DNA of 64,000 bases from Patescibacteria group bacterium (lineage in GTDB: Bacteria > Patescibacteriota > CPR2 > UBA1875 > CAIMLA01), in contig JBGSPL010000004.1 in assembly GCA_041738615.1 (NCBI GenBank), positions 65,203 to 129,202 on the forward strand, given 5' to 3'. The notes below the pieces were generated by a model, which saw only the letters and a list, made by a program, of their open reading frames with translations, was not told the origin of the DNA and ran no database searches. A program made the translations under genes and the position numbers. This document shows positions 10,044 to 58,510 of the stretch, piece after piece. Each line of letters opens with the position of its first letter. The stretch's first letter is position 1.

Positions 10044-11671
10044 TGAAGAAAGACCTTGTAGATAACCGAGTATTTACCCGATTTTTGGAGATTGCGCCCG
10101 GCTTTGTGGCGCTTTCTTACCTTATTCTACCTTTTCTATTGGCTCCGACTTTCCCTATAGTAGTCGCGTATTTCATCTTGGCTTTTAACTTTTACTGGTT
10201 TATAAAGGCCATAAATATCATGAGGCATATGATAAACGGTTTTAGGCACATGTGGCACGATATGAAGGTGGATTTTCTGTCTCGCGCCAAGTTGGCCACG
10301 AGTAATCCCGCCAAGCTAGAAAAGGAGCTGCGGGATAAGTACGAGAAGAGCAACAATCGTCTGGATTATTTGGACTGGTTGGAGTTTTCGCATCTCGAGG
10401 GTAGATACGACAACATCAAAAACTGGGAAGACGTCTATCAAGTTGTCTTTGTTACTAACTATCAGGAAGAGTATTACATCACGGAATCTACTTTTCAGGC
10501 ACTGAAGGACTCTAATTTTCCGAACGATAGAATCATCGTGGTATCCTGCGGCGAAAAGCGTGATGAAGAAAACTACCTTCAGGTCCAGGCCGAGATCGAA
10601 AAGAATTTTGGCGGGGTATTCCGCGACATGCATTTCTACATGCACGATGTAATGCCGGATGAGGTCATCGGCAAAGGTGGAAATCTCTACTCAGCCATGA
10701 CTAAATTCTACAAGGTATTTAAGGAAAAATATTCTGACGTTCGTCCTGAGAACGTGATTTGCACGACCCTCGACGGAGACCATATCCCGCACAAGGAGTA
10801 CTTTGCAGAGATCACCTATAAGCACATCATCGATCCCGACCGCGATCGAAAGACCTACCAGCCAAATATACTAATGTTCAACAATATTTGGGACGCTCCG
10901 TCTCCAAGCCGAGTGTTAGCGGTAGCTTCTAGTTTTTGGCAGATGGTGGAGTCGATGCGACCTTACCGTTTGCGTACATTTGCTTCCCACTCGCAGAGCC
11001 TAGCTACGCTAATCACTACAGATTTTGTATCGCGATATACAATCGTTGAGGATGGCCACCAGTATTGGCGCACCTACTTTGCATTTAACGGAAATCACGA
11101 GATGATGCCGATATATGTTCCGATTTATCACGACACAGTACTGGGGAACAACTTCTGGGAGACGCTCAAGAATCAATACAAACAGCGCCGCCGCTGGGCT
11201 TGGGGCATCTCGGACTTTCCATTTATCATCAAAAACTATATGCGCCACCCAGAAATCCCTTTTTGGGAGAAGTTTATACAGACCTACCGCCATGTCGCAG
11301 GGCACATCTCTTGGTCCACCTCGTCTTTCCTACTGGCCTTTGCCTGGATACCCCTCCTTTTTAACAGTTCTTTTCAAGACACAGTGCTTGCACATAATGT
11401 ATCTATCTATAGCTCGATGATGCTCAAACTGGCCTGGATTGCGGTCTTTGCCAACGCCTGGCTCTACTTCCTGCTTCTGCCACCGCTACCAAAGCGCTTC
11501 GAGAAAACGCGAGTTCTGCGCTATGCCGGAATGGTCTTCCAGTGGGCGATTGCTCCCTTTGTACCGATATTACTTTCATCATTACCTGCCCTAGAGTCGC
11601 AGATTCGGTTAATGTTTGGGCAAAGCCTAAATGTTTTTTGGACGACACCGAAGGTCCGCGGCAGGGACTAG
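10043..11671 (+). CDS. family 2 processive glycosyltransferase (cellulose-synthase-like)
   Basis: N- and C-terminal TM helices, TLDGDH (DxD-like) and QRRRW (Q.xRW) motifs. Confidence 0.8.
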   Translation: MKKDLVDNRVFTRFLEIAPGFVALSYLILPFLLAPTFPIVVAYFILAFNFYWFIKAINIMRHMINGFRHMWHDMKVDFLSRAKLATSNPAKLEKELRDKYEKSNNRLDYLDWLEFSHLEGRYDNIKNWEDVYQVVFVTNYQEEYYITESTFQALKDSNFPNDRIIVVSCGEKRDEENYLQVQAEIEKNFGGVFRDMHFYMHDVMPDEVIGKGGNLYSAMTKFYKVFKEKYSDVRPENVICTTLDGDHIPHKEYFAEITYKHIIDPDRDRKTYQPNILMFNNIWDAPSPSRVLAVASSFWQMVESMRPYRLRTFASHSQSLATLITTDFVSRYTIVEDGHQYWRTYFAFNGNHEMMPIYVPIYHDTVLGNNFWETLKNQYKQRRRWAWGISDFPFIIKNYMRHPEIPFWEKFIQTYRHVAGHISWSTSSFLLAFAWIPLLFNSSFQDTVLAHNVSIYSSMMLKLAWIAVFANAWLYFLLLPPLPKRFEKTRVLRYAGMVFQWAIAPFVPILLSSLPALESQIRLMFGQSLNVFWTTPKVRGRD

Positions 11672-22889: not shown

Positions 22890-23125
22890 ATCGATTCTCC
22901 TTTCCACCCCTCAACTCTTAGAATTTAGTATCTTTAAACAAATTAGGCACAAACCAATAGAAAGAAGTGTAAACTTCCTCCCATAAGCTCATGCCCATAG
23001 AAGTACCTAATTGTATTTTTTGTTTTTTAGGGCTAGTTTGGCCCCTAAGATGATGAGTGCCCTTAGTCGCTACCAAAGACATTCTTATTATACACCTAGA
23101 GGTCAATGGGGTAATAGTCATGGAA

Positions 23126-29866: not shown

Positions 29867-31054
29867 TTATTCGTAACGTAGGGCTTCGAGCGGGTCTAGC
29901 TTAGCAGCGCGTCGCGCTGGTAGGATACCAGCTACTGTACTGATAAAGAAAGCGAAACCGACCACAAACCCAGCAAACCATAGTGGGGTAGCGAAGAGGC
30001 TGACCGCAGGACCGTCCAGGCTGACCGCAACGAAGTTGATCATTAGGTTTATACCTTTACCTAGGAGCCACCCTGTGGATACGCCTATCAGTCCGCCAAA
30101 GAGTCCAATCATAGAAGCTTCTGCTGTAAAGACGAACGCGACATCGCTGTTTCTACCACCGATAGCCTTCATGACACCAATCTCATGTGTACGTTCCAGG
30201 AGCGCAATGGTAAGGGTATTGAAGATGCCGATGGCCGCAACCATCAGGGCGATAAAGCCGAAACCTCCCAGTACGAATTTCACGATCGTAAAGACCTGAT
30301 TGATCTGATCAACCGTATCAGTCACTGAGTTTGTCGGATAACCCATACTTTCGACCGCCTTGCGAATTTCCATCATTGACTCTCGCTTTTCAATCTTGAT
30401 CTTCACTTTGCTATAGGTACTCCCTTGGAATTTGTCGAGTACCTTGATCGGTGTGTAGGCAAACTTGGTAGCGTCATCCTTTGAGATACCGATGATCTTT
30501 AGCTTGAGGGTGCTCTCCTCTTTCTTGTCGTTGGAAATAATCTTAACAACCTTTACGCTCAGCTCCTGGCCTAGTGCTTTTGCCGGGTCTGTAAGCTTCA
30601 GAGCCTTTAGACTTGCAATCGAGATGATTGTCTCGTTGGCGGTGTCGCTAGAGAAGGTTTTACTGCCGTAGTCGGCCGTGATGTCTTCGAGGTTTAGGTA
30701 TTTGGGGTTCACGCCGTAGGCGATAGTATCACCACTGTCTGTTGCGGTACTAATGCTTGCTGGGTAGCTAAGAATAGGGCTAATGTCGGTGACGCCCTCG
30801 ATCCCTTTGAACTTCGTTACGGCGTCACTGTTTAGGAGCGTGTTTTCCTTTTGACTTGTATTTACGGTAAGTAGGGTAAGGGCGTCGAGGTTTGCTACCT
30901 TGCTGACGGCTAGTTCTTGCATCCCGAAACCTAGTGAAACAAGGAAGACGATAGCTCCAATACCAACAACCACGCCGGAAATAGTAAGTACTGTTCGTAG
31001 CATATTGCGGCGTAGATTGCCGAAAGAAAGGCGAAGGATGTCAATTATTTTCAC
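29867..31054 (-). CDS. ABC transporter permease, FtsX/MacB family
   Basis: N-terminal TM, large extracytoplasmic domain, C-terminal 3-TM FtsX domain, terminal DPLEALRYE. Confidence 0.85.
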   Translation of the reverse strand: MKIIDILRLSFGNLRRNMLRTVLTISGVVVGIGAIVFLVSLGFGMQELAVSKVANLDALTLLTVNTSQKENTLLNSDAVTKFKGIEGVTDISPILSYPASISTATDSGDTIAYGVNPKYLNLEDITADYGSKTFSSDTANETIISIASLKALKLTDPAKALGQELSVKVVKIISNDKKEESTLKLKIIGISKDDATKFAYTPIKVLDKFQGSTYSKVKIKIEKRESMMEIRKAVESMGYPTNSVTDTVDQINQVFTIVKFVLGGFGFIALMVAAIGIFNTLTIALLERTHEIGVMKAIGGRNSDVAFVFTAEASMIGLFGGLIGVSTGWLLGKGINLMINFVAVSLDGPAVSLFATPLWFAGFVVGFAFFISTVAGILPARRAAKLDPLEALRYE

Positions 31055-32055
31055 TCTTTTGGCTCCTCTGTTTCAGTAGTGGCTTCAGCGTCATTCGCCG
31101 CTGGTTCCACAGTAGTAGTTTCCGTTTCTGTGATTGTAGTTTCGGTATCGGTAGGCTCGGTGGTGTTCGTCTCGGGAATCATCTCTTCGGTTTCCGGTTC
31201 TTCCTCTTCAGTCTTTTTCTTTGATTTCTTGCCTGTTTTTGTCTTCATACCATCATCTGCATTACTGTTGCCGGCTTTCACAGCACCAATCTCTTTGGCA
31301 ACTTCCTTAAGATCATCACTGATGTGTTCAACGCTGTCGACGTCTTCCTCGGTCTTTACCTTGCTATTGACCTGGGTCTTTACTACTTTCCCGTCCTGCA
31401 TAAAGAAGATACGGTCAGCGTAGTCTAGGTACTCTGGGTTATGGGTAATGAGGATAACGGTACGTTTGGATTTACGGTTAAGGGAGATCAGAAGTCTCAT
31501 GACTTCGTTTGCTGATTTCGAGTCCAGATTACCTGTTGGCTCGTCGGCAAGCATAATCCAAGGCGCCGTGACCAGGCTTCTTGCTATAGCAACTCTTTGT
31601 TGCTGTCCTCCTGAGAGCTGTGAGGATGTGTGGTCGGCATATTTTGCTAGCCCTACCGTTTCGAGTAGGCTCTTTGCCCTGGCAATACGCTGAGATTTGG
31701 AAATCCGAGCAAAAGTGAGCGGAAGCGCAATGTTTTCGATGATATTCATGGAAGGGATGAGGTTGAATGACTGGAAGACGATCCCAATCTTGGACCTACG
31801 GTACTTGGCTAGACCTTCGTTATCTAGAGTGGAGAGCTTATCTCCACGGACATAGACTTCGCCTGTGCTTGGCTTTTGAAGGCCAGCAATGATAGAAAGT
31901 AGAGTAGATTTGCCGCAACCAGACTGTCCAAATATACAAATAAACTCCCCCGAGTAAATCTCAAGATTTACTCCTTGTAGAGCTTTTACTTCGACATCGC
32001 CGAGCTGATATGTTTTTGAGACATTGACAGCCTTGAAGACTGGTACTTTTGCCAT
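31051..32055 (-). CDS. ABC transporter ATP-binding protein (MacB/LolD-type) with about 90-aa Thr/Glu-rich disordered C-terminal tail
   Basis: Walker [10 protein letters not shown], signature [13 protein letters not shown], Walker [13 protein letters not shown]. Confidence 0.9.
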
Positions 32056-32119: not shown

Positions 32120-33643
32120 CTAGAGTGCAAATCTCTGCTTTGGGCGATACTGAAGCGCCTCTGCGATATGAGAGGGTTTGATGTTTTCGCTTCCCTCAAG
32201 GTCTGCTATGGTTCTCCCAAGCTTTAAGATCCGATGATAACCACGCGCCGAAAGCCCAAGCTGTTTGCTAGCAGCAAGGAGTAGATTATTCCCCTCTGTA
32301 TTGAGTCGACAATATTCTTTGATATCAGAGAGTGACATTTCGCTATTGGTGACCGCTTTGCTGCCTCTCAGTCTCGCCCGCTGCACTTCGCGAGCAGCCT
32401 TTACCCGAGAAAGTATTTGCAGGGATGGTTCTGCGCTTCTATTGTCGACCAGCTTTTGGTGGTCCACCCTAGGTACTTCGAGATGAATGTCGATCCGGTC
32501 AAGAAGTGGCCCGGAAACCTTCTTCTGATATTTCACTATCTGCCCCAAGGTACAGGTACACTGTCTCTCTGGGTCTGTAGAGTAACCACAGGGGCACGGA
32601 TTCTGGGCTGCGACCAAGATAAACTTCGCCGGGAAATCTAGGCTGCCATTGGCTCTAGAGATTGTTATAGTCCCTTCCTCTAGGGGTTGTCTCATGACCT
32701 CTAGTACCGCCCGAGGAAACTCCGGTAACTCATCGAGAAAGAGGACACCGCGATGCGAGAGACTTATCTCGCCTGGTTTTGGCCAGCTACCGCCACCAAT
32801 AAGCGCCACACCACTGGTCGTATGATGGGGACTACGATAGGGGCGTGTCCGAATGAGAGAACTTTGTTTGTTGAGAGCCCCAGCAACGGAGTAAATCTTT
32901 GTTACCTCCAAGGCTTCCTCGTAACATAGAGGCGGTAGGATAGAGCAGAGAGCCTTGGCAAGCAGAGTTTTGCCGGAACCAGGAGGTCCGTCCATCAGAA
33001 GGTTGTGTCCGCCAGCGGCGGCAATCTCTAATGCTCGTTTGGCGTGCTCTTGTCCGATTACCTGGGCAAAGTCAATCTCGTATTTTTCCGTATCCTGATC
33101 TTTGAAAGGGGAGAAAGGGGAGATAGCTAGCGGTACTTCTTTTCGAAAATGGTTGATGAGATCAATGAGAGAATTAGCCCCGTATATTTCTATACCATCT
33201 ACGACAGTCGCTTCGGCAATATTGATCGCTGGTACGACGATTGAATCAAATCCGAGGTCGCGTGCTGCAACTACAGTCGTCAGGATGCCGTTTGTATGTC
33301 TCAGTTTGCCATCGAGTGACAGTTCGCCGACAAATATATACTTACTAGGATCGAAATCTATCTGCCCGCTTGCAAGCAATATGCCGATGGCAATAGGGAG
33401 GTCGTAGGCCGGGCCTTCCTTGCGAATGTCGGCCGGAGCTAGGTTTACAGTAATCCTTTTCTGGGGAAAGGTGGTGTCGCAGTTCTTGAGTGCGCTGCGG
33501 ACCCGTTCCTTGGATTCCTCGACCGCCTTATCGGGCAAACCGACTATCATGAATCCTGGCAGACCACCAGAAAGATCGACTTCTACCTCTACCTTTTCTG
33601 CGGCAAGCCCAATGACTGCTACCGAACTTATTTTTGCAAGCAT
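32120..33643 (-). CDS. YifB/ComM family Mg-chelatase-like AAA+ ATPase
   Basis: GPPGSGKT Walker A and ComM-type domain order. Confidence 0.85.
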   Translation of the reverse strand: MLAKISSVAVIGLAAEKVEVEVDLSGGLPGFMIVGLPDKAVEESKERVRSALKNCDTTFPQKRITVNLAPADIRKEGPAYDLPIAIGILLASGQIDFDPSKYIFVGELSLDGKLRHTNGILTTVVAARDLGFDSIVVPAINIAEATVVDGIEIYGANSLIDLINHFRKEVPLAISPFSPFKDQDTEKYEIDFAQVIGQEHAKRALEIAAAGGHNLLMDGPPGSGKTLLAKALCSILPPLCYEEALEVTKIYSVAGALNKQSSLIRTRPYRSPHHTTSGVALIGGGSWPKPGEISLSHRGVLFLDELPEFPRAVLEVMRQPLEEGTITISRANGSLDFPAKFILVAAQNPCPCGYSTDPERQCTCTLGQIVKYQKKVSGPLLDRIDIHLEVPRVDHQKLVDNRSAEPSLQILSRVKAAREVQRARLRGSKAVTNSEMSLSDIKEYCRLNTEGNNLLLAASKQLGLSARGYHRILKLGRTIADLEGSENIKPSHIAEALQYRPKQRFAL

Positions 33644-47508: not shown

Positions 47509-47616
47509 ATTATGGCATTAAATACCGTTGACAAAATCTTTCCACTTTCTCTTTAATTGCTTTATACTACGGTTATAGGGTGTTTAAGGAATCTCAAAAG
47601 GAAGGAGGTGAAAAAA

Positions 47617-48291
47617 ATGCAAGATATCGCACAAGTTACTTCGACTGCTGTCGTTGACTCACTATCCAAAATCGTTAGCTATCTTCCAAACGTCTTAGGC
47701 GCTTTGGTAATACTGCTGATTGGTGTCGTAGTCGGCTGGGCAGTCAAGTTTGTTATTGTAAAGGGTCTTGGGTTCATCAAACTCAAGAAATATACCGACG
47801 CAGTTGGCCTGGGCAACATCTTCACACAGAAGGTAGAATTCGTTACTCTTCTCGGAGATCTCGCTAAATGGACAGTTGTAATCGCTTTCCTTCTGCCAGC
47901 TTTCCAGGTTCTGAACCTAGAGGCTGCAAACGAAATCGTACTTGGTATCCTGTCTTATATCCCCGATGTTATCAAAGCCGTTGTTGCTATCGTAATTGGT
48001 GCTGTAGTTGCTGATCTCGCTTCACGCGTGATTCGTGCTACTGCTGCTACTATCGGTACACATACAGCTGACATCGCTGCCGATGTTGCTCGCTGGGCTA
48101 TCATGGCCTTCGTGCTTCTTGGCGCACTACAACAGCTCAATATCTTACCAGAGCTCGTTAGCACACTTACTATCGGTGTCGTCGCTTTCTTCGTCATCGC
48201 TGGTGGTCTCGCTTTCGGTCTAGGTTCTAAGGATGCTGCAGCTGACGTTGTTGCAAATTTCCGCAAGCGTCTACCAAAAGACAAAAAATAG
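47617..48291 (+). CDS. small-conductance mechanosensitive-channel-like / conserved TM-helix repeat membrane protein
   Basis: Start at ATG 47617 with SD ggaaggaggtg; repeated amphipathic TM helices. Confidence 0.5.
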   Translation: MQDIAQVTSTAVVDSLSKIVSYLPNVLGALVILLIGVVVGWAVKFVIVKGLGFIKLKKYTDAVGLGNIFTQKVEFVTLLGDLAKWTVVIAFLLPAFQVLNLEAANEIVLGILSYIPDVIKAVVAIVIGAVVADLASRVIRATAATIGTHTADIAADVARWAIMAFVLLGALQQLNILPELVSTLTIGVVAFFVIAGGLAFGLGSKDAAADVVANFRKRLPKDKK

Positions 48292-48494
48292 GGGACAATT
48301 GCCCAAAAATATAAGAGGTTTTGCCGCATTAGTGGGGAAGCCTCTTTTATATTGTGGAACTGGTCATAAAAAGTAGTATTACAAAGCTAGTTTGTGTATA
48401 ATATTTATAGCGAATAGGAGGGCTAACTATAGCCAAAAAGAAGTCGAAAATCAGGCACGCTCTCGGGCTTCTGCGTTTTCATACTACACTTCGG

Positions 48495-51400
48495 TTGCAC
48501 CAACACGCATCGAAGATTTCTTGGTATAGAAAGTGGCATGATTTTCGCTATGCACACCATGTGCATGTTGCGGCTCTGATTGGGTATGTGATTGCCCTCG
48601 GCGTATTTCTCGGGGCAAATTATTATATCGCTCCGGGCAAGGCATTCGCTGCCAACGGTAACTTTAGCCAAACGACTTTCAGTGGATCTGATGGAACTTA
48701 TACCAACACAACACCTATCAACTCCGGTGCGGATGTGGCCCTGAACCCGGTGCTTTCTAACGCCGGAGGCTCGGGCTGGCTTTATAAAAGACCAATCACT
48801 GTGACTAACGGATCTGGTGGTCCCCTGACAGATTATCCGGTAGCGGTTACTCCGTTTAGCGACTCGACCTTTGTAAACAACACCAGCCTTAACGGATCGT
48901 GGCATTTTTCGGAAGGAGCGGGCACCACTACCGTAGATAAATCCGGGAACGTCAATTCCGGCACTATGAATGGCACTAGCTACTGGACAGCCGGGGCCAC
49001 CGATGGGAAATCGGGCTATGGTTTTAACGCCGTGGCTGCTAACAGCAACTTTGTGAATGTCCCTGATAGCACGAACTTGAAATTCGGAACTGGTAATTTT
49101 TCAGTTTCGGCCTGGGTTAAGCAAACCAATACCACGGGGACACAGAATATAGTAACGAAAGGCGTTTCAGGATCGGGCATCTCCTACCTTCCAATCTATC
49201 AACTTGCCATTGTTGGTGGTAAAGTGTCGGCCTATGTTGACGGTAATAATGCTAGCGGACAGCATTACGCTTCATGCACTGGTGCAACAACCTTATCAAC
49301 GGGGACTTGGAACTTGGTCACCCTAGTTAGGACTGGCGCAACAATCTCTACTTATTTGAACGGAAATGCAACCGCAGAATGTTCTTATACCGCTGTTGCT
49401 TCAACCGGCAGTTCAGATACTACTGAGCCACTAATGATAGGCAGGGAACGACATACCAGCGCGGGTTATCGGAACTATTTCAATGGAGTAATAGACGATG
49501 TAAAGGTTTATGGACGGGCTTTGGCCGGAGCTGAAGCCGCGGTTAATTATGGAGCCACTGGAACAACTAAGATTCGCACCGATTTCCAGGACATTAGGTT
49601 CGCTAACTCGGTGACGGGGGTGGAATATCCTTATTGGCAAGAAAATGACGGAAAATTTTGGGTTAAGGTCAACAGCTTACCGAATGGCACGAACACTAAT
49701 TTTTTGAATATGTATTATGGAAACGCTAGCGCTACCCCGACGAGTAATGGTTCCAATATTTTTGCACTCTATGATGATTTCGAAAGTTACGGAATCGGTG
49801 CATTGGGCACCCAGGGGGGCTGGGTTAGTTCAGCTGGGACCAACGGCTTTGCCAATGTAGTAGCCGGAAAATATTTTGACTCGGGAATCACTAGTGGTAC
49901 TGACGGTCAGGATGGAACGGCAAGCCATGCTATTACGGCTATGAATGCGGGGGAAGTATCCTATCGTTTTAAAAGGGATAGTACGAGTAACAATTATAGC
50001 TATTTCGTGTTATCAGAAGGTGCCACCGCGCGGTTTCAAATAGTAGGAAGCAACAGTGGGGAGATTAAATATATTGGTGGTGCTTACCCTTGGACATCAC
50101 TGTCACCAGTTACGAACTGGGTTAATGGAACGTGGTATACAATTACCGTTAAATGGTATAGCAATAGTACGGCAGATATATATGTGAATGGTGTCCTGAA
50201 GAAAACTGCAGCGGCATTTGGCACATCTATGGTTACGGCTATTGATAAAGTTACGTTTACGACTAGCAGCAGCGGTGATCCGCACTCCATTCATTTGGGA
50301 ACGGATGATGTAAGAGTTCGAAAGGCCACGACAACGGAGCCGACCCATACAGCCCCGGGCACAGAGGTTGCAGCCTATAATACTACCGGCTCATATACGA
50401 CCGCCGTCCAGGCTCCTGCCGGAGTCTATAACTGGGGCGCACTTACTTATACAAAAACTACTCCTGGTTCTTCGACGGCAACAATCGACGTTTTGAACGG
50501 CACAAACGATGCTGTTATTTCATCTAATGTGGCCAGTGGGACTAATCTCAACCTATCTGGGCTGACATACCCCTCATTGAAAATAAAGGTGAATTACACG
50601 ACCTCTGCAGTCGGTAACATCCCGACCCTTAGTCAGTGGGACCTGGTTTATAGCGCAGACACTACCCCGCCAAGTGTCCCAACCGGGTTAACGATAGGGA
50701 CAGCAACTTCTAGCGCAATACCCCTTACATGGTCTGGCGCAACAGATGGCGAATCTGGGGTCCTCGGATATGAGATTTCAAGAGCGCCAGACTCGGCTGG
50801 TAATCCTGGCACCTGGGCGGCGGTGGCTACTGATTCTCCTTGCTATGGAGCAGCAGGAGTTTTGAATGCTATAAGCTGCACGGATAGCTCAGTTTCCACC
50901 CCCTTATTATCGAATTCTAAATATTTCTACCGAGTGAGGGCAAAGGATAATGCTGGTAATTTTTCTGGTTATTCTGGGGAGCAAAATGTTGATGCGAGTA
51001 CAGTGGGGCTTTGGCATCTGAATGAAGGTACGGGAGCAACAACGGCAGATTCGAGTGGTATTAATCAAACAGGGACAATGAACGGCACTAGTTATTGGAC
51101 TACTGGAAAGGTGGGTGGTGGACTCGCGGCTAACACAAATAATAACACTTCAGTTACTAGCACCGCAGCTTTAAAGCCCTCAAATTTTACAGTCGAAGCT
51201 TGGTTTTATGCTACCAGTGACCAAAATAGTAAAATTTTAGTTTCAAAATATGCTGCTCTCCCAGCTGACTATGAAATATCAATAGATGTAAACGATTACC
51301 TGAACGTAAGGTCTGATACCGCAGGATCAGTCGCTTACTATGCAACAGACAATGTCGTCTTTACAAATTATTTGAATGGCTGGCACCATGTTGCCGGGAC

Positions 51401-54400
51401 TTATGATACTGATAACAAGCTTAGGTTATACGTTGATGGTCAGTTAAAAGGCACAAGCGCGGCCTTTACCAGGGCGAATTCAAGAACTGATTTACTTACG
51501 TTTGGAAGAAGGGCTTACGCAGGTGCCGAATCACCTTTTACGGGTAAAATCGACGAGGTTCGGATCTCGAACACAGCTCGTTCGGCAGCCGATATCCTAG
51601 CCTATTACACTGAATCAAACCCACAGCCAAAATCTACCACTACTCTTCCTGGTGTTCCGACGGCTTTTACGGGTAGTGCAGTTTCGACATCGGCAATCAA
51701 TATGACTTGGTCAGCTCCAGCTGGAGGTGCGGATCACTATCATGTGAAGTACTCTGGCGATGGTTACGCTTCAAATATTTATAACAATGCTACGGCTGCC
51801 TTTGATGATACTGGCAGGGGTGCCAATACATCATATACATACCGTCTCTACTCGGTAAATGCTAGCGGGGCGGAGTCAGATACCTACTCTGAAATAACCA
51901 AATCTACCTGGGTAAATGCTCCCGTCAATCAAACGGCCACTACTGTCTCTAATACTCAAATTAATCTAGCTTGGGAAGCAGGCGCTAACGGTGCGAACCA
52001 TTACCACGTTCGTTCGTCGTCAGATGCTTATGCTACGCTCAAATATGACAATACTACAGCGAGCTGGAATGAAAGCGGTCTCACGGGCAATACGGCCTAC
52101 ACTTATCGTATCTACGCCGTCAGTGTCGATAATGTCGAAAATACTAGCTATGTGACAGCTACCAACACCACACTTACGAACACACCAGTGTTAGCTGCTC
52201 AAACTACTCCGACCAATGATAATACCCCACAGATTCATTCTACGACCATAGATAGTTCCGCCGCGAACCGCACAGTTAAGCTATACCAAGGGGCATCTCT
52301 GGTGGCTACCACTACAGCTGCCGCCAACGGTACCTTTACCTTTGCCAACGGAGACTGGGGCGCCAACACACTGGCCGATGGAGTGTATACCGATCTTGTT
52401 GCGAAATCAGTTAATAGTGCCGGGCAGGAAAGCGTGGCTTCTGTTGCTCTAAACTTGCCGACTGGGTTATTGATAGATACTCATGCACCGTCTTCTAGCG
52501 TAACCAATAATCCTACGCTTCCCGGAGACCACAACGGCTATTTTGTTACAAACCCTGTGATTACCCTCACTGCCATAGACGATGCCCCTTCAAGCGGAAC
52601 AACAGTTCACTACCGTTGGGGAGCCGACGCTTTTGCTACTTATTCTGGAACGATCAGTATCCCGGCACAAGGCGAGAACACACTCAACTGGTATGCGACC
52701 GACGGTGCCGGCAACATCGAGAGCACGCACACGGAAACATACATGTTGGATAGCGTGAAGCCTGCTGGTAACATTTCTTTCCAATACGAGTATGCTCATT
52801 TCGATCCAGAGCTACTAATTCTCGACGCGAGTGATGATACGAGCGGTGTAGATAGTGTACGGTTGTCCAACGACGGAGTAACATTTTGTACGATTCCCTA
52901 CACTCAATACATTCAGTGGAATTTCTCCGGGCTGATTACCGATGATCCGTATATATATGGCGCTGATTGCGGTATGAACTATGGAGGTGAGGGGGCCAAT
53001 ACTATTTACTTTAGTTTTGTAGACGGGGCCCTGAACGTAAGTGACACACAGACCGTTTCGATCATCCTAGATAGCATTGAGCCAGTGAACCCTACAGCTA
53101 CAGTTACGGCAACGCCAGCAGGAGGTGCAAACGGCTGGTACAAGAGTGCTGCGCCAACCTTTACTTTAACCGGTGCTTCTGACGCGACAAGCGGCCTAGA
53201 TGGCTACTTTGTCCTATTTACTACAGACCCATTGGCGGAACCGGTAGTAGACGGTATATATCAGGCAGTGAATCCTGGAGGTGACACTTTTACGCCTACC
53301 ATAGACCCTGCAGATTCGGGCAAGACATTTTACCTGCGTGTTCAGGCAAGAGATGGTGCTCTCAACTTGCATTGGGGTCCGGACGAAGCAAATCTGACCA
53401 TATTTACGTATAAGTATGACGGCACCAATCCCGCAGCAATCAGCTTTATTACGCCATCCCCAGCGGGCTGGAGCGCTACAAACAACTTCGATTTCGCGTG
53501 GCCAAAGACGAGCGATATAGACAGCAATGGCGCCTCCTCGGGTATGGATGGTTATCTCTACCGTCGTAAGCTAGCTGCAGACAGCGATACCTATGAGAGT
53601 TGGGATAAGGGGAGTCGTTTTGTTGCGCAACCAGCGGGTAGCACTGTGAATCTAAACGATATCGAGGCCCTGTATACTGGCCTAAACGTGATAGAGATTA
53701 AGGCGCTGGACAAGGTCGGTAATGAATCGGCCGCAAAACCTGTAAATTACTACTATTCTGGCGATATTCCGCAGCCCACGAATCTAAGTGTCGATCTTTC
53801 CCAGTCAAATAACATGACAGTAAACAGATATAACTTCAGTTGGAACGCTCCTACCGGTGTGACTCCTCAGGGCTACTATTACTCGGTGAATGCAGAGCCT
53901 GATACTCAAAACAGTACTTTTATTCCTTATAATGAGGGTGGTAGTACGAGTACCGGATTTGCGGCTTTTGCCACGAAGACAGGGCTTAACAAGTTTTATG
54001 TAGTGACTAAAGCGAATGACATGGTTGGTTGGACCAACTTTGAGATGGCCGAGTTTACCTGTAACACCTCGGCGCCAGGGATTCCGACTGGTGTGATGAT
54101 AACGGATTCCTCGAGTCGCGATAGCGAACGATGGCAACTTACCGTAAATTGGGATCAGCCAGCTCAGATTTCCACTGATTTCAATGGTTATGCCATCGAG
54201 CGGAGCACCGATGGGACGAATTTCTCCGAGATCGCGACCACGGGTGAAAATACAACTGGCTATTTGGATACAAATTTGCTAAACGTTTCTACCTATTATT
54301 ATAGAGTGAAGTCGAGAGACAATACGGGTAATAAATCGCCAGCATCCACTGTCGTTTCGCGTCAGCCCACTGGTCGCTATACTGAGCCTCCAAAGATGAT

Positions 54401-55604
54401 AGGGGACCCAAAGATAGAGGTCCAGGCAACCAAAGCAATCATCGACTTTACTACAGAACGCGATGCCGACTCCTTTGTACAGGTCGGGACAACAACAACC
54501 TATGGTATGACTCAGGGGCAGCTCGATAGCACTAGCAGCCATACCGTGAATCTATCCGGACTCACCCCCGGAGTCTTCTACCACTATCGTGCTATGTGGC
54601 GTGATATAGACGGGAACATCGGCTACAGCAAGGACTATACATTCAAGACCCAGGATGCGCCTGGTATTTCGGAGGTAAATGTCAGTAGTATTGGTCTCAC
54701 GAGTGCTATCGTGAGCTGGAAGACGAATACTGTTTCCTCGTCCGTGGTCAAATATGGTAAAACAAATACTTACGGCTCTCAGGTAGAAGACAGGTCTGGC
54801 TCTGGCGTCACAGTTCATGTGGTGAAAATAGACGGTCTCAACGACTCTACTACTTACCATTTTAAAATTTCAGGCACCGATACAGACGGCAATGGACTCA
54901 GTAGCGACGATTATTCGTTTGAGACCCTCACCTTCCCACGAGTTTCAGATGTCAAGATTACCCAAAAGGCCGACGAGGTTACCTCGACGATTGTTGTTAC
55001 TTGGTCTACAAATGTACCGACAGACTCAGTAGTGAACTACTCTGGAGGCGGCACAAACAAGGAATCATCCAAGGCACTGCTAGAGCAAAAACATAGCATT
55101 ACCGTGGGTAATCTACGCGACAACACCGCATACACCATCAGTGTCGGGGGCAGAGACGCATACGGTAATCAGGCCGAGGGCGGCAGTGCCAGCTACAAGA
55201 CAGCGTTTGATACCAGACCACCACAGATCACAGCGATTACGACTGAGACCTCGATAGTGGGCTTTGGTATCGATGCAAAGGGTCAGGTCATAGTTTCATG
55301 GGAAACCGACGAACCTAGTACTTCTCAAGTAGAGTACGGCGTAGGAGTCTCTGGAGACGACTATTCGCAGAAGACACAGGAGGATACGGGTCTTACTACC
55401 ACCCATGTCGTCGTTATGTCTGGTCTCAAGCCATCGACTTCTTACCATTTCCAGGTAGTATCCAAGGATGCTTCGGGCAACACCGCAAGCTCCGAGGATA
55501 CCTCGTTTCTTACCGACCAGGCGAGCTCTTCTGTGCTCGATATCATCGTCAATTCGCTGCAATCAACAATTGGCTGGATTTTCGGCTCATTCGCTAGGAG
55601 GTAA
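48495..55604 (+). CDS. giant (2369 aa) secreted multidomain surface protein: signal/TM anchor, DUF2341 with inserted LamG jelly-roll, second LamG, at least 8 FN3-like modules, Ig-like domain; exact start uncertain (TTG 48495; in-frame SD aggaggg at 48416)
   Basis: GWLYKRPITVTNG...DYPVAVT and TKIRTDFQDIRFANSVTGVEYPYWQENDGKFWVKVNSLPNGTNTNFLNMYYGN = DUF2341 halves; LamG signatures GTMNGTSYWT.G and LYVDGQLKGT...GKIDEVRIS; FN3 motifs with conserved W and YxYR(V/L)xAxD. Confidence 0.8.
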   Translation: MHQHASKISWYRKWHDFRYAHHVHVAALIGYVIALGVFLGANYYIAPGKAFAANGNFSQTTFSGSDGTYTNTTPINSGADVALNPVLSNAGGSGWLYKRPITVTNGSGGPLTDYPVAVTPFSDSTFVNNTSLNGSWHFSEGAGTTTVDKSGNVNSGTMNGTSYWTAGATDGKSGYGFNAVAANSNFVNVPDSTNLKFGTGNFSVSAWVKQTNTTGTQNIVTKGVSGSGISYLPIYQLAIVGGKVSAYVDGNNASGQHYASCTGATTLSTGTWNLVTLVRTGATISTYLNGNATAECSYTAVASTGSSDTTEPLMIGRERHTSAGYRNYFNGVIDDVKVYGRALAGAEAAVNYGATGTTKIRTDFQDIRFANSVTGVEYPYWQENDGKFWVKVNSLPNGTNTNFLNMYYGNASATPTSNGSNIFALYDDFESYGIGALGTQGGWVSSAGTNGFANVVAGKYFDSGITSGTDGQDGTASHAITAMNAGEVSYRFKRDSTSNNYSYFVLSEGATARFQIVGSNSGEIKYIGGAYPWTSLSPVTNWVNGTWYTITVKWYSNSTADIYVNGVLKKTAAAFGTSMVTAIDKVTFTTSSSGDPHSIHLGTDDVRVRKATTTEPTHTAPGTEVAAYNTTGSYTTAVQAPAGVYNWGALTYTKTTPGSSTATIDVLNGTNDAVISSNVASGTNLNLSGLTYPSLKIKVNYTTSAVGNIPTLSQWDLVYSADTTPPSVPTGLTIGTATSSAIPLTWSGATDGESGVLGYEISRAPDSAGNPGTWAAVATDSPCYGAAGVLNAISCTDSSVSTPLLSNSKYFYRVRAKDNAGNFSGYSGEQNVDASTVGLWHLNEGTGATTADSSGINQTGTMNGTSYWTTGKVGGGLAANTNNNTSVTSTAALKPSNFTVEAWFYATSDQNSKILVSKYAALPADYEISIDVNDYLNVRSDTAGSVAYYATDNVVFTNYLNGWHHVAGTYDTDNKLRLYVDGQLKGTSAAFTRANSRTDLLTFGRRAYAGAESPFTGKIDEVRISNTARSAADILAYYTESNPQPKSTTTLPGVPTAFTGSAVSTSAINMTWSAPAGGADHYHVKYSGDGYASNIYNNATAAFDDTGRGANTSYTYRLYSVNASGAESDTYSEITKSTWVNAPVNQTATTVSNTQINLAWEAGANGANHYHVRSSSDAYATLKYDNTTASWNESGLTGNTAYTYRIYAVSVDNVENTSYVTATNTTLTNTPVLAAQTTPTNDNTPQIHSTTIDSSAANRTVKLYQGASLVATTTAAANGTFTFANGDWGANTLADGVYTDLVAKSVNSAGQESVASVALNLPTGLLIDTHAPSSSVTNNPTLPGDHNGYFVTNPVITLTAIDDAPSSGTTVHYRWGADAFATYSGTISIPAQGENTLNWYATDGAGNIESTHTETYMLDSVKPAGNISFQYEYAHFDPELLILDASDDTSGVDSVRLSNDGVTFCTIPYTQYIQWNFSGLITDDPYIYGADCGMNYGGEGANTIYFSFVDGALNVSDTQTVSIILDSIEPVNPTATVTATPAGGANGWYKSAAPTFTLTGASDATSGLDGYFVLFTTDPLAEPVVDGIYQAVNPGGDTFTPTIDPADSGKTFYLRVQARDGALNLHWGPDEANLTIFTYKYDGTNPAAISFITPSPAGWSATNNFDFAWPKTSDIDSNGASSGMDGYLYRRKLAADSDTYESWDKGSRFVAQPAGSTVNLNDIEALYTGLNVIEIKALDKVGNESAAKPVNYYYSGDIPQPTNLSVDLSQSNNMTVNRYNFSWNAPTGVTPQGYYYSVNAEPDTQNSTFIPYNEGGSTSTGFAAFATKTGLNKFYVVTKANDMVGWTNFEMAEFTCNTSAPGIPTGVMITDSSSRDSERWQLTVNWDQPAQISTDFNGYAIERSTDGTNFSEIATTGENTTGYLDTNLLNVSTYYYRVKSRDNTGNKSPASTVVSRQPTGRYTEPPKMIGDPKIEVQATKAIIDFTTERDADSFVQVGTTTTYGMTQGQLDSTSSHTVNLSGLTPGVFYHYRAMWRDIDGNIGYSKDYTFKTQDAPGISEVNVSSIGLTSAIVSWKTNTVSSSVVKYGKTNTYGSQVEDRSGSGVTVHVVKIDGLNDSTTYHFKISGTDTDGNGLSSDDYSFETLTFPRVSDVKITQKADEVTSTIVVTWSTNVPTDSVVNYSGGGTNKESSKALLEQKHSITVGNLRDNTAYTISVGGRDAYGNQAEGGSASYKTAFDTRPPQITAITTETSIVGFGIDAKGQVIVSWETDEPSTSQVEYGVGVSGDDYSQKTQEDTGLTTTHVVVMSGLKPSTSYHFQVVSKDASGNTASSEDTSFLTDQASSSVLDIIVNSLQSTIGWIFGSFARR

Positions 55605-55606
55605 GT

Positions 55607-56365
55607 GTGAAAAAGCATCCTATCATTTCGGTAAATAATCTGCACAAGACCTTCCATGTTGGTAAGACAGACATTGAAGTTCTAAAGAACATTGACCTTG
55701 ATATATATGAGGGAGAGTTCGTGATAATACTGGGCCCCTCTGGGTGTGGGAAGTCGACTCTGCTAAACACGATTATCGGTCTTGAGGCACCTACTTCTGG
55801 CTCAGTTACTATCAGGAAACAAAACGTCTTCGGGAATACTACATCGGATCAACGTTCCATTTTTCGTAGGAAGAATATAGGGATGGTGTATCAGCAATCA
55901 AACTGGATGCAGTCTCTCAACGTTTTCGAGAACGTGGAGTTTCCACTCCGAATGACAAAACTGCGGAACGCTAGCATAAAAAAACGTGCTCATAACATCC
56001 TTGACCTTATGGGGATGAGCGAATACGAAAAGTATAAGCCTACGGAGCTCTCCGGAGGTCAGCAACAGCGCGTAAGTATGGCCAGGGCGCTAGTCACCAA
56101 TCCCCTTATTATCGTAGCTGACGAACCAACGGGAAACTTGGATACCATCACGGCGGCTGATGTAATGAGCATCTTTAAGTATATAAATGACGAATCTCAC
56201 CGCACCGTCATAATGGTCACACACAATCTGGACTACGAAAAGTATGCAAACAAGGTGGTCTATATGAGGGACGGGGCAATAGAGAAGATCAAAGATACCA
56301 GAAAGGCAGTACAGTCGGGGGCAGAAGGCAAGAAGGATCTTTTGGAAATGGCATTGGAGATGTAA
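55607..56365 (+). CDS. ABC transporter ATP-binding protein (MacB/LolD-type), 3 nt downstream of giant protein gene
   Basis: [34 protein letters not shown]. Confidence 0.9.
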   Translation: MKKHPIISVNNLHKTFHVGKTDIEVLKNIDLDIYEGEFVIILGPSGCGKSTLLNTIIGLEAPTSGSVTIRKQNVFGNTTSDQRSIFRRKNIGMVYQQSNWMQSLNVFENVEFPLRMTKLRNASIKKRAHNILDLMGMSEYEKYKPTELSGGQQQRVSMARALVTNPLIIVADEPTGNLDTITAADVMSIFKYINDESHRTVIMVTHNLDYEKYANKVVYMRDGAIEKIKDTRKAVQSGAEGKKDLLEMALEM

Positions 56366-57561
56366 TGAAGAATAGATATATTATACTACTAGCATTCAAA
56401 AATCTGATTAGTCACAAAATGAGGACAATACTCACGGCTGGGGGAGTCGCCATTTCTGTAGGCTTCGTAGTCTTCTTGGTCACTCTGGGTCTCGGGCTGC
56501 AACGAATCTCGACAAATCAGATAGCAAACCTAGACGCACTGCGAAACCTTACGGTTACATCCGGCAAGTCGAAGATAGTAAGCATAAACGACGAGACCCT
56601 TGGGAAGTTCTCTACGCTCAGTAATGTGGTAGATGTACAGTCTTCGTTTAGCAACCCGGCTAGCATCTCCTATAATGGTTCCAATATTGATAGTGTCGTC
56701 TACGGTAAGAGTGCGGAATATATCAAACTCGAAGCCCCAAAGTTTGAAGTTAACGGAAAGTATACAAGCAACAATGCAGATGAGGTGATATTGAGCAGTG
56801 AATTGCTGAATCAGCTTGGAGTAAAGAGTGCCAATTCATTGATTGGGAAGCAGGTGGATCTCGTTACTACGATCAAGAGAGCGGATCTCGGAGCGAATTC
56901 CGAATCAAAGAAACTAAGTTATCAGCTCAAGGTCGTAGGAGTAATAGACGATAAGAATGCTCCATATGCATATATGCCTGCAAATTTGCTTACACGAGAC
57001 GGCCTAAAGAATTATTCGGGAGCCCTGGTCCGAGTGAACGACAAGTCGGATGTAGATAAGGTCAAAACAGAAGTTGAAAACTTGGGTTTTAAAACAGCTT
57101 CCGTAAAGGAAACTGTAGATCAAATCAATCAGTTCTTTAGTGTTTTTCAGATTATCCTTCTGTCCTTCGGGGCAATTTCGATAATCGTCGCCTGTTTGGG
57201 TGTTTTTAATACCCTAACCATCTCCCTGCTCGAGAAAACACGAGAAGTTGGTTTTATGAAAGCGATGGGCGCCACGAAGCCAGATATCTATAAGTTATTT
57301 ATTTCAGAGTCCCTAATTATCGGCGTGCTAGGTAGCGGCGCAGGGCTTATATTCGGTTTCACTGTGGGTAATGTCCTGAACCTCAGTATTTCTGGCCTCG
57401 CCAAAGCTACAGGTAACGTCGCTGTTGAGCTTTTTTATGCCCCTATTTATCTCGCAGCGATAATTGTAGCAATAGCGCTTCTTATAAGCCTCCTTACCGG
57501 TCTATATCCTTCGTTCAGAGCCGCTAAGATAAATCCGCTAGACGCACTTCGTTACGAATAA
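56365..57561 (+). CDS. ABC transporter permease, FtsX/MacB family (paralog of 29867..31054)
   Basis: Same architecture and terminal NPLDALRYE as the other permease; start overlaps ATPase stop. Confidence 0.85.
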   Translation: MKNRYIILLAFKNLISHKMRTILTAGGVAISVGFVVFLVTLGLGLQRISTNQIANLDALRNLTVTSGKSKIVSINDETLGKFSTLSNVVDVQSSFSNPASISYNGSNIDSVVYGKSAEYIKLEAPKFEVNGKYTSNNADEVILSSELLNQLGVKSANSLIGKQVDLVTTIKRADLGANSESKKLSYQLKVVGVIDDKNAPYAYMPANLLTRDGLKNYSGALVRVNDKSDVDKVKTEVENLGFKTASVKETVDQINQFFSVFQIILLSFGAISIIVACLGVFNTLTISLLEKTREVGFMKAMGATKPDIYKLFISESLIIGVLGSGAGLIFGFTVGNVLNLSISGLAKATGNVAVELFYAPIYLAAIIVAIALLISLLTGLYPSFRAAKINPLDALRYE

Positions 57562-57589
57562 GAAAAAGAGGCCCCTTGGCCTCTTTTTC
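57562..57589. terminator. bidirectional intrinsic terminator
   Basis: gaggcc-cctt-ggcctc followed by ttttt. Confidence 0.8.
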
Positions 57590-58510
57590 TTATTCTTTGT
57601 AGATTTTTGCGGCCTGCTCGGGTGGTATTGAATTTATGATAACACCAGTACCGAGCTCTAGGCCTGCCCAGATGTTTGGACGAGGAGAGAGCTTCAGGTG
57701 AGTGTGGTAATCTTCATGATTGACGGCGTTTTCGAAAAAGTAATTATAAGCGATACCTAGCTCATCGAGCTTTGCGAGGACAATCTTCATTGCAGTTGCT
57801 AGCGATTCTTTTTCTGGTTTGGTGAGTTCAGAAAAGGTGGCTATATGCCGTTTGGGGATGAACCAGGCGCCGTAAGGAGAGTCACTGGCATAAGGTGCAA
57901 GGACAAAGAGATTCTCATCCTCCCAGATCACGCGGCTGCTGTCCTTCTCTTTCTCAATAATGTCGCAGTAGGGGCAGTTTACGTGCTCTAGGCGGTACTC
58001 ATTGTACGCCTTGGCCTCTTCCTCCACTTTCGGCGGTACGATGGGCAGAGCGATGATCTGTGTATGTGAGTGGGACACAGAGGCACCAGCTTTACCGCCC
58101 TCGTTCTTAAAGACGATAACATGTTTTACCTTTGGCATATTCCTGAGAGCCTCGAAGCGGTTTATACAGGCATCTAGGATATTTACAACGTGGCTGACTG
58201 CGAGCTCCTGCAACTCCTTGCAGTGGTCTCGAGTCTCTATGAGGACTTCTTGTTGTCCAAAGGCTCGTGAGTTCTCGACAGAGAGTGCGCTAAACTTGTT
58301 TATCACAGAAATAACGTCCCATTTGCCATCGCTATTCTTGTGTTCGTAGGTAACCACTTCGTCCTCGGACAGGTTTTGGGGGCAAAAAAAGCAATCCTTA
58401 CTGCAATTATCGGCCGGCAAAGTGATTTTTTGTGGCCGTTTGTTGCGTTTAGGTGCAATTATTACGTATTTATCTAAAAAGTAATCCTTGCGAATTTCCG
58501 ATTTTTCCAT
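57590..58510 (-). CDS. galactose-1-phosphate uridylyltransferase-like (GalT/HIT superfamily); start at MEKSE
   Basis: CFFCP zinc motif, VSHSHTQIIA (HxHxQ) active site. Confidence 0.75.
   Translation of the reverse strand: MEKSEIRKDYFLDKYVIIAPKRNKRPQKITLPADNCSKDCFFCPQNLSEDEVVTYEHKNSDGKWDVISVINKFSALSVENSRAFGQQEVLIETRDHCKELQELAVSHVVNILDACINRFEALRNMPKVKHVIVFKNEGGKAGASVSHSHTQIIALPIVPPKVEEEAKAYNEYRLEHVNCPYCDIIEKEKDSSRVIWEDENLFVLAPYASDSPYGAWFIPKRHIATFSELTKPEKESLATAMKIVLAKLDELGIAYNYFFENAVNHEDYHTHLKLSPRPNIWAGLELGTGVIINSIPPEQAAKIYKE

Follow-up and report, generated by a model that had tools for sequence, protein, structure and literature searches.

Why should the gene for a giant surface protein be followed almost without a gap by the genes of its own MacB-type ATP-binding cassette (ABC) transporter? 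The question is raised by a stretch of 64,000 nucleotides from a Patescibacteria group bacterium (contig JBGSPL010000004.1, positions 65,203 to 129,202), referred to below as the window, in which a giant secreted protein, an ABC ATPase and a permease are encoded in succession (positions are those of the window unless a locus is named). A preliminary description of this DNA had placed the three open reading frames (ORFs) exactly where they are found here (Table 1) and had proposed a dedicated pairing of a MacB-type transporter with a giant protein of the DUF2341 type. The window trio is an example of a three-gene cassette found widely among Patescibacteria, and the ABC pair is linked to a C-terminal stalk of fibronectin type III (FN3) domains and its terminal helix, not to DUF2341.

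A search with the permease, covering one genome per species, returned 11 loci, the closest to the window permease being Saccharibacteria metagenome-assembled genomes. tblastn analysis places the last ~820 residues of the giant directly upstream of the ATPase-permease pair in L002, L003, L004, L005, L006, L008, L009 and L010, whose permeases are 32-60% identical to that of the window, and the giant is found upstream in eight of the nine genome loci reached via the permease. The N-terminal 1500 residues of the giant return at most weak matches at the loci retrieved in this way. From the side of the giant, alignment A1 of the C-terminal module retrieved family members of 703-1487 residues, and all seven stalk homologues that were looked up have ABC_tran and then MacB_PCD/FtsX domains encoded directly downstream, the flanking genes differing every time. 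A distant member of 3517 residues with the same tail also precedes an ABC ATPase, bringing the individually inspected homologues to 8/8. Lastly, a metagenome scan with alignment A2 identified at least 554 relatives, of which the best 79 loci were kept. The ATPase starts 3-450 nucleotides past the stalk gene in 74 of the 76 informative loci among them, and the permease follows wherever the contig is long enough; regarding the remaining five of the 79, the contig stops too early in two, a second giant comes next in one and an unrelated ORF in the other two. The preliminary description had made its proposal depend on a linkage between giant and MacB-type genes in other genomes, and this linkage is strongly conserved, but the part of the giant that carries it is not the one named there.

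The stalk and tail module covers residues ~1520-2369 of the giant (~850 residues) and aligns end to end with 17 other proteins at 30-53% identity (alignments A1/A2), four Pur_ac_phosph_N/FN3 stretches lying in the last 430 residues. The AlphaFold2 (AF2) model of the stalk, computed from a 19-sequence alignment, is all-beta and comprises about nine sandwich domains, with a mean predicted local distance difference test (pLDDT) value of 80.6 and a predicted template modelling score (pTM) of 0.36, as expected for a beads-on-a-string array. Foldseek analysis of this model reports generic FN3/Ig arrays only (titin/MyBP-C, contactin, gp130 and the base of the GhpA grappling hook), without any functional lead, and the Pfam/NCBIfam domain calls detect neither a wall-binding nor an S-layer-homology module in the conserved stalk. 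The giant then ends in a conserved 20-residue amphipathic helix (VLDIIVNSLQSTIGWIF), which is conserved in about 100 family members whose 3' end is intact, follows the consensus …[VA][LF][DN][LI][IV]…L…FG[WF]…, and occurs in three flavours (SSVLDIIVNSLQSSLGWLFG, DSVLTIILNSLQKVFGL and DNALNLVITNLQEAFGFLGGLKK) whose aromatic end is GW[LI]F or FGF[L]. Its hydrophobic moment is 0.35-0.6, as compared with a protein mean of 0.16, and its Kyte-Doolittle hydropathy (~1.0) is below the transmembrane (TM) threshold, which makes it too polar for a TM helix. In the AF2 model the terminal helix (residues 828-848) is not packed on the stalk array. The C-terminus (...SSVLDIIVNSLQSTIGWIFGSFARR) has no LPXTG motif and its hydropathy stays below TM grade, and the giant was rejected as a sortase/LPXTG surface protein on these grounds. 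The tail motif returns a single match across all six frames of the window. A profile of the last FN3 domain and the tail matches 2,539 cluster representatives at E<=1e-30; among the 150 best-scoring proteins listed, of up to 6321 residues, the best-matching stretch including the tail ends a few residues from the C-terminus in about one third. The same terminal tail is carried by P0289 (5134 residues), P0193 (6321 residues) and P0252 (6179 residues). The N-terminus of P0289 is rich in Ala and Arg, suggestive of a high-GC organism, and the family may extend beyond Patescibacteria.

The N-terminal head in front of this module is interchangeable. Among 50 cassette proteins, DUF2341 is found in 11, LamG in 8, Kelch in 7 and RCC1 in 3; other heads are DUF6923, glycine-rich, FGE-sulfatase or BclA_C, and many have no recognisable domain. 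Head length ranges from ~90 to 1900 residues across the family, and the minimal cassette members, of 918-1055 residues, are nearly headless. A word-indexed search with the N-terminal 702 residues of the giant retrieved distant DUF2341/LamG proteins only, and not the window protein; three of them, devoid of the stalk module, were used as controls, and in all three the gene has no ABC or FtsX neighbour. With DUF2341 in so few of the heads, near-headless members in the family and stalk-less controls without ABC genes, the partner of the ABC pair is therefore the stalk and tail. The window head itself, analyzed by Pfam and NCBIfam profile matches, does hold a bona fide DUF2341 domain with a LamG insertion, as had been described: a strand (GWLYKRPITVTNGSGGPLTDYPVAV, residues 95-118; pattern WLYKRPITVTN..LTDYPVAV) precedes the first LamG domain, while the DUF2341 core comes after it, and this order of strand, LamG insert and core is kept in the bacterial and archaeal proteins P0002, P0004 and P0006-P0012 (alignment A4, built from the same N-terminal search). 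The Ig-like and FN3-like modules of the preliminary description were also found (FN3, Big_13, OmpL47-type and Pur_ac_phosph_N/FN3 matches), and LamG-type domains are present, though they number three, one of them weak, instead of two. Giant surface proteins containing DUF2341 or FN3 domains are known in Patescibacteria (PMC11809585, PMC13059738), and DUF2341 has been noted both in type IV pilus loci of archaea (PMC4858521) and as a fusion to ExbB/MotA-like subunits (PMC12505986). In contrast to these DUF2341 (MJ1470-type) proteins, DUF2341 is just one of several swappable heads in the cassette, and the stalk-less ones are not linked to ABC genes.

Duplications and fusions also bear on the linkage. 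In L003 (1-11188), the whole cassette is duplicated in tandem. In at least eight loci, including L008/L009 (3-11188), L043, L052, L064, L023, L034 and L067, two giant paralogues, both with a tail of their own, lie in tandem; in most of these loci they are followed by one ABC pair only, the contigs of L023 and L067 ending before any ABC gene is visible. The ATPase and the permease are fused into one protein of 942-982 residues in L015 (10836-13784) and L018 (10407-13235). The one-to-one encoding, the tandem duplication of a whole cassette and these fusions argue for a specific, co-evolving partnership and not for a general machine, and it is very probable that the giant and the ABC pair are dedicated functional partners. 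The second MacB-type pair of the window, with a Thr/Glu-rich tail on its ATPase as had been reported, is real; a ComM-like gene (32120-33643) precedes it and no giant accompanies it, and a Dojkabacteria pair that resembles it (L012) has none either. The linked ATPases are closer in score to the linked copy of the window than to this second pair in 75 of 90 cases, and the linked permeases in 74 of 83. In several unrelated cassettes, the space between giant and ATPase contains an ORF of 106-126 residues encoding a four-helix bundle of the 23S-rRNA-intervening-sequence family (PF05635, bAvd-like). A fourth component hidden in the gaps of ~440 nucleotides was considered and rejected, as these gaps hold this ORF, probably an unrelated insertion; the gap is possibly a recurrent insertion site, or the ORF possibly an accessory gene. 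In L015, a membrane ORF of 169 residues (10330-10836) lies between the giant and the ABC gene.

As read from the window sequence, giant, ATPase and permease form a single bounded transcription unit, because the junctions are of the coupling type and strong hairpins are located outside the unit, with none comparable inside. The TAA codon of the giant gene (55602-55604) is followed by two nucleotides and then by the GTG codon of the ATPase, whose Shine-Dalgarno sequence AGGAGG (55596-55601) coincides with the last two Arg codons of the giant. The ATPase TAA and the permease ATG overlap by one base (TAATG), with GGAG six bases upstream. The translational coupling of the ABC pair to the giant gene, already suspected from the near-contiguous junctions, is thus probable. 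Sequence reading and folding found no comparable hairpin between the two bracketing ones. A scan for consensus promoters and terminators gave no enrichment (22 promoters against 17.5, 11 terminators against 9.4); it missed both bracketing hairpins, which came from reading and folding the sequence. No separate promoter or terminator, which according to the preliminary description would set the genes apart, lies between them.

The beginning of the giant gene probably lies upstream of the listed TTG codon (48495) and uses a non-canonical codon. From 48411 onward the frame is open, without any ATG, GTG or TTG ahead of 48495, whereas a perfect AGGAGG sits 7 nucleotides ahead of an in-frame ATA at 48429, and the segment LLRFHTTLR, encoded upstream of the TTG (48411-48497), resembles the N-termini of orthologues, with their conserved LRF[HK]TT..H..A motif. 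The public gene call (GTG at 48561, 2347 residues) is probably too short; P0214, also of 2347 residues, is a different protein despite the equal length. Hydropathy analysis reports residues 20-46 as the sole TM-grade hydrophobic segment of the giant, preceded by an unusually long, conserved, basic and aromatic n-region (WY[KR][KR]WH[DE][FY]..HHVH), and orthologues as well as distant relatives possess an AXA-type site at the matching position. The N-terminus is therefore more readily taken for a Sec signal peptide that is cleaved off than for a permanent anchor. The preliminary description had left signal and anchor open: the N-terminal hydrophobic segment stands, while the anchor is made less likely by the AFA/A site, which suggests cleavage. 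If the N-terminus is cleaved, the topology is the opposite of that implied by an anchor, with the tail proximal to the cell and the head distal.

The ATPase matches ABC_tran with an E-value of 4.6e-37, and its catalytic motifs, including VTHN, are intact, from which ATP turnover is expected. The permease comprises a MacB_PCD domain (residues 21-239, 67.9 bits for a cut-off of 27) and an FtsX domain (residues 267-391, 71.6 bits for a cut-off of 25.5), and hydropathy places its TM segments at residues ~19-50, 256-291, 311-335 and 350-385, in agreement with the helices of the AF2 model (pLDDT 82.5). Foldseek analysis of this model reports Spr0695, LolE, MacB, YtrF, HrtB and YbbP, the TM-scores to MacB, LolE and YtrF being 0.6-0.77, with values of 0.73 for LolE with bound Lpp and 0.77 for MacB; the entries include 5xu1_M (E 6e-22), 9rld_E (0.73), 5nik_J (0.77) and 9o9x_C (0.66), and the FtsX structures 8ymc and 8tzk are also among the fold matches. 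The nearest solved protein in sequence is Bacillus subtilis YtrF (phmmer E 7e-32), followed by Spr0695, MacB and LolF/C/E. By Pfam, sequence and predicted fold, the permease belongs to the type VII/MacB-fold superfamily, in line with the MacB/FtsX-type assignment first given to the pair. It fits none of the curated families of this superfamily that were tried. LolCDE membership was rejected, since the lolCE and LolD scores are below threshold (85.4 bits for a cut-off of 362, and 204.7 bits for 307.75) and the signal peptide of the client ends in AFA/A without a Cys. FtsEX membership was rejected on scores of 40-43 bits against the FtsX models (cut-offs 225-255) and of 191 bits against FtsE (cut-off 265). 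A MacAB-TolC-type tripartite pump was rejected because no HlyD-family adaptor is encoded and the MacB model PRK10535 gives 74 bits for a cut-off of 966; no adaptor-type Pfam family was found in the window unit or in eight annotated homologous loci. A BceAB-type transporter does not fit either, the permease having 398 residues with 4 TM segments, not 10, and the BceB structures being distant (TM-score ~0.4); nor does a type 1 secretion system, as the permease is of the FtsX/MacB_PCD and not of the ABC_membrane type, and the giant has an N-terminal signal peptide. The permeases of cassettes outside Saccharibacteria are much longer (537-712 residues as compared with 398; L019 9559-11679, L020 4726-6864, L021 10917-12638, L022 4560-6173), which implies enlarged extracytoplasmic domains going with the FGFL-type tail class.

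How might such a pair serve a giant surface protein? Instead of carrying substrates through the membrane, type VII ABC systems perform mechanical work at its outer face: LolCDE pulls out acyl-anchored proteins and HrtBA heme, FtsEX actuates the proteins bound to it, and MacB expels periplasmic substrates. We know of no substrate assigned to YtrEF. In our proposal, the ABC pair acts on the C-terminal helix at the outside of the membrane, by handling or anchoring it, and thereby erects a variable-headed adhesin; we give this reading even chances. The giant would cross the membrane via Sec and its signal peptide would be cut at AFA/A. The C-terminal helix, last to emerge, would remain at the outer leaflet as the only membrane-seeking element left, and could be captured by the lateral TM cavity or by the extracytoplasmic domain of its own MacB-type dimer. 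ATP-driven mechanotransmission would then lift the helix from the lipid and either keep it docked or hand it on, so that the stalk would be rooted at the cell with the variable head pointing outward as an adhesin or receptor-binding device. Such steps would be analogous to those of LolCDE on lipoprotein acyl chains and of FtsEX on EnvC/PcsB, and the resulting topology would be that of classical C-terminally anchored adhesins. That the tail helix is the element handled by the pair is slightly less probable than not, and whether the head acts as an adhesin could go either way. Several observations weigh against the proposal. Cleavage of the signal peptide follows from the AXA rule only, and an N-terminus kept as an anchor would reverse the topology. 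L007 contains an orthologous ABC pair without a giant within 10 kb upstream. The two metagenome loci in which the giant is followed by an unrelated ORF and then by the end of the contig are L030 and L061, possibly cassettes disrupted by insertion. The next ORF is integrase/transposase-like in L061 (1907-2995), and encodes an unrelated protein of 219 residues in L030 (3793-4449). Furthermore, co-inheritance taken alone fits a handler of the tail and a transporter using the stalk as an accessory alike. Lastly, the oral Saccharibacterium Southlakia epibionticum, for which transposon sequencing data exist, appears to lack the cassette, so that no fitness data are transferable: its tables contain no PF16656 or PF10102 protein, and its essential FN3 protein SEML1_0890 (195 residues) is unrelated (PMC10633639).

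The explanation that survives best beside this one, unlikely as it is, reverses the roles: the ABC pair would move a lipid, glycolipid or peptide, and the FN3 stalk would replace the adaptor as a scaffold or conduit across the envelope, the head positioning the assembly on the host cell. MacB-type pumps normally partner an extracytoplasmic adaptor, and adaptor genes are missing from all cassettes examined; the conserved part is the stalk and not the head. Patescibacteria rely on their hosts for lipids, and this host dependence would suit a lipid-moving pair, as would the permease fold, which fits the lipid- and heme-handling LolE, HrtB and YbbP as well as MacB. However, a beads-on-a-string model with so low a pTM, without coiled-coil, barrel or lipoyl features and without a predicted oligomerisation surface, does not look like an adaptor, the conserved free C-terminal helix is left unexplained, and the loci with two giants for one ABC pair (L008, L009, L043, L052 and L064) are better accounted for by two clients than by two adaptors. 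Next in order, and again improbable, the ABC pair would act once in the manner of LolCDE, extracting the helix so that the giant enters the wall or S-layer or is shed, instead of serving as a lasting anchor. This overlaps with the proposed handling of the tail and differs from it solely in the fate of the giant after extraction. Pushing hydrophobic moieties out of the outer leaflet is characteristic of type VII systems such as LolCDE and HrtBA, both represented among the structural matches; the ATPase motifs are intact, and the amphipathic tail could retain the giant at the membrane after Sec export. Yet a general release machine needs neither one copy per client nor the joint duplication seen in L003, and neither a wall-binding nor an S-layer-homology module was detected in the stalk.

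A switch of the FtsEX kind, in which the ABC pair would control a binding or enzymatic activity of the giant through the stalk as FtsEX controls EnvC, PcsB or CwlO, is very unlikely. A dedicated extracytoplasmic partner of a type VII pair is indeed the FtsEX paradigm, and FtsX structures are among the permease fold matches, but the head, as the part under control, varies between members and is missing from some, the window giant has no hydrolase domain among its domain calls, the NCBIfam FtsX models score far below their cut-offs, and a force transfer through ~20 flexibly linked domains is implausible. As for an ordinary drug or antimicrobial-peptide efflux pair sharing an operon with a surface protein to which it has no functional connection, which the generic database names ('ABC transporter permease', 'putative ABC transport system permease protein') would suggest and which the preliminary description had itself raised in the form of a bacitracin-type exporter, it is effectively excluded by synteny: adjacency is kept down to ~30% identity and in differing neighbourhoods, throughout the fusions, tandem duplications and nearly all informative metagenome loci, and the permease has 4 TM segments and not the 10 of the Bce type, its nearest solved relatives being YtrF, Spr0695, MacB and LolE.

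Comparison with known systems locates what is new in the cassette. With the type VII/MacB superfamily (MacB, Spr0694-0695, YtrEF, YbbAP, HrtBA) it shares a separate ATPase and a 4-TM FtsX-domain permease with a Porter/Sabre domain between TM1 and TM2, but it has no adaptor or outer-membrane partner, and instead a dedicated giant FN3-stalk protein with a C-terminal helix. LolCDE, among the best structural matches, likewise has as its substrate an extracytoplasmic protein that a hydrophobic handle keeps at the outer leaflet; the client of the cassette, however, has no lipobox or acyl anchor, its putative handle being the C-terminal amphipathic helix, no LolA/LolB is encoded, and there is one ABC pair per client gene as opposed to one machine for all lipoproteins. 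FtsEX with EnvC/PcsB/CwlO/RipC is also a type VII pair with a dedicated extracytoplasmic protein partner and no transported solute, whereas the partner in the cassette is not a coiled-coil hydrolase activator, the permease has a full MacB_PCD domain and there is no link to division genes. The type 1 secretion of giant repeat adhesins (LapA, SiiE, MpIBP) offers another likeness, a giant beta-sandwich repeat adhesin beside an ABC transporter with a functionally important extreme C-terminus. It operates with a 6-TM HlyB-type exporter, an adaptor and TolC on substrates without a Sec signal; the giant of the cassette has a Sec signal peptide, and its ABC pair is of the MacB fold, without a transmembrane channel. 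Finally, the sortase/LPXTG, exosortase/PEP-CTERM and archaeosortase/PGF-CTERM systems have in common with the cassette the logic of a signal peptide, a variable head, a repeat stalk, a short C-terminal tag and a dedicated membrane machine. The cassette tag differs in having neither an LPXTG or PEP motif nor a true TM helix, and no requirement for a basic tail, and the machine, encoded alongside every client, is an ABC pair driven by its ATPase in place of a transpeptidase.

The coordinates of the unit and of related features are collected in Table 1. The flanking genes are unrelated housekeeping genes, namely those of glutamate dehydrogenase, threonyl-tRNA synthetase, tRNA-Val and tRNA-Leu, and the GalT-like gene. 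Elsewhere in the window, another probable surface protein of 704 residues with Listeria-Bacteroides repeat (Flg_new) domains is encoded at 20793-22907 (minus strand), and a 655-residue membrane protein resembling sulfatases and lipoteichoic acid synthases at 5915-7882 (minus strand).

Table 1. Coordinates of the giant protein gene, its ABC pair and associated features (window positions, or positions in the named locus).
Feature	Position	Strand	Description and basis
Giant secreted protein gene	48495..55604	+	2369 residues counted from TTG; ORF listing and translation
ABC ATPase gene	55607..56365	+	252 residues, GTG start; Walker A, signature, Walker B with catalytic Glu and H-loop all intact
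Type VII (MacB-fold) permease gene	56365..57561	+	398 residues, ATG start; 4 TM; ~205-residue extracytoplasmic Porter/Sabre domain between TM1 and TM2
Conserved C-terminal stalk	53052..55532	+	About nine FN3/Ig-like beta-sandwich domains, four of Pur_ac_phosph_N type; alignments A1/A2, AF2, synteny
Conserved C-terminal amphipathic helix	55533..55595	+	VLDIIVNSLQSTIGWIFGSF; candidate docking/handling element
Shine-Dalgarno AGGAGG (48416-48421), then in-frame ATA (48429-48431)	48416..48431	+	Probable non-canonical true start of the giant gene
Sec-type signal peptide (predicted)	48495..48650	+	Basic/aromatic n-region WYRKWHDFRYAHHVH, h-region residues 20-46, AFA/A after residue 52
N-terminal strand(s) of split DUF2341	48777..48863	+	GWLYKRPITVTN...LTDYPVAVTPFSD; alignment A4
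LamG/ConA-like domain 1, within DUF2341	49041..49535	+	Laminin_G_3, E 7e-23, residues 183-347
DUF2341 core	49581..49787	+	PF10102, 53.4-57.1 bits for a gathering cut-off of 23.4, residues 363-431
LamG/ConA-like domain 2, weak	49956..50249	+	Laminin_G_3, E 2e-5, just under cut-off, residues 488-585
LamG/ConA-like domain 3	51141..51596	+	Laminin_G_3, E 5e-28, residues 883-1034
Variable middle region	51657..52736	+	Two FN3 (residues 1055-1219), Big_13 Ig-like (~1240-1316), OmpL47-type (1351-1414)
Terminator hairpin of upstream MscS-like gene (47557-48291)	48308..48352	+	RNA fold -27 kcal/mol, z -4.3, then U-run; 5' unit boundary
Perfect 18-bp bidirectional terminator hairpin	57556..57595		-27.9 kcal/mol, z -8.7; common to the convergent GalT-like gene; 3' unit boundary
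Second MacB-type pair	29867-32055	-	ATPase 31051-32055 with ~95-residue acidic Thr/Glu/Lys-rich low-complexity tail
PF05635-type ORFs	L034 10275-10625; L074 4056-4427; L083 2570-2947; L093 4747-5124; L104 12674-12994		
PF05635-type ORF, decayed remnants	L085 8816-9043; L092 9635-9862		

Searches of the open-access literature found no description of a dedicated MacB-type pair with a giant surface protein or of the C-terminal helix. What is known is the giant DUF2341/FN3 surface protein; what is new is the class of client and partner that a type VII ABC system has here, and its conserved arrangement suggests an undescribed way of mounting surface proteins. If the proposal is true, the type VII family would gain a client class, the giant Sec-exported surface protein recognised via its C-terminal helix, and its first such system encoded one-to-one with its client. 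A bolder and less probable version would make the tail helix a new sorting or anchoring tag, read by its own type VII ABC motor, the two together forming an ATP-powered display or attachment organelle specific to these ultrasmall episymbionts. Were this so, a mechanotransducing ABC transporter would do for these bacteria what sortase/LPXTG or exosortase/PEP-CTERM does elsewhere, and the organelle could extend or retract host-binding heads, or let them go. For thousands of giants now called 'hypothetical' or 'fibronectin type III domain' proteins, the tail motif with an ABC pair downstream of it also provides a simple annotation rule. The Patescibacteria account for a large part of bacterial diversity and spend their lives attached to other microbes, and to our knowledge, type IV pili aside, the molecules of this attachment are largely unknown. 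A cassette found at hundreds of loci in one metagenome scan, with a modular host-binding head on a conserved chassis, is a testable candidate for such an attachment device.

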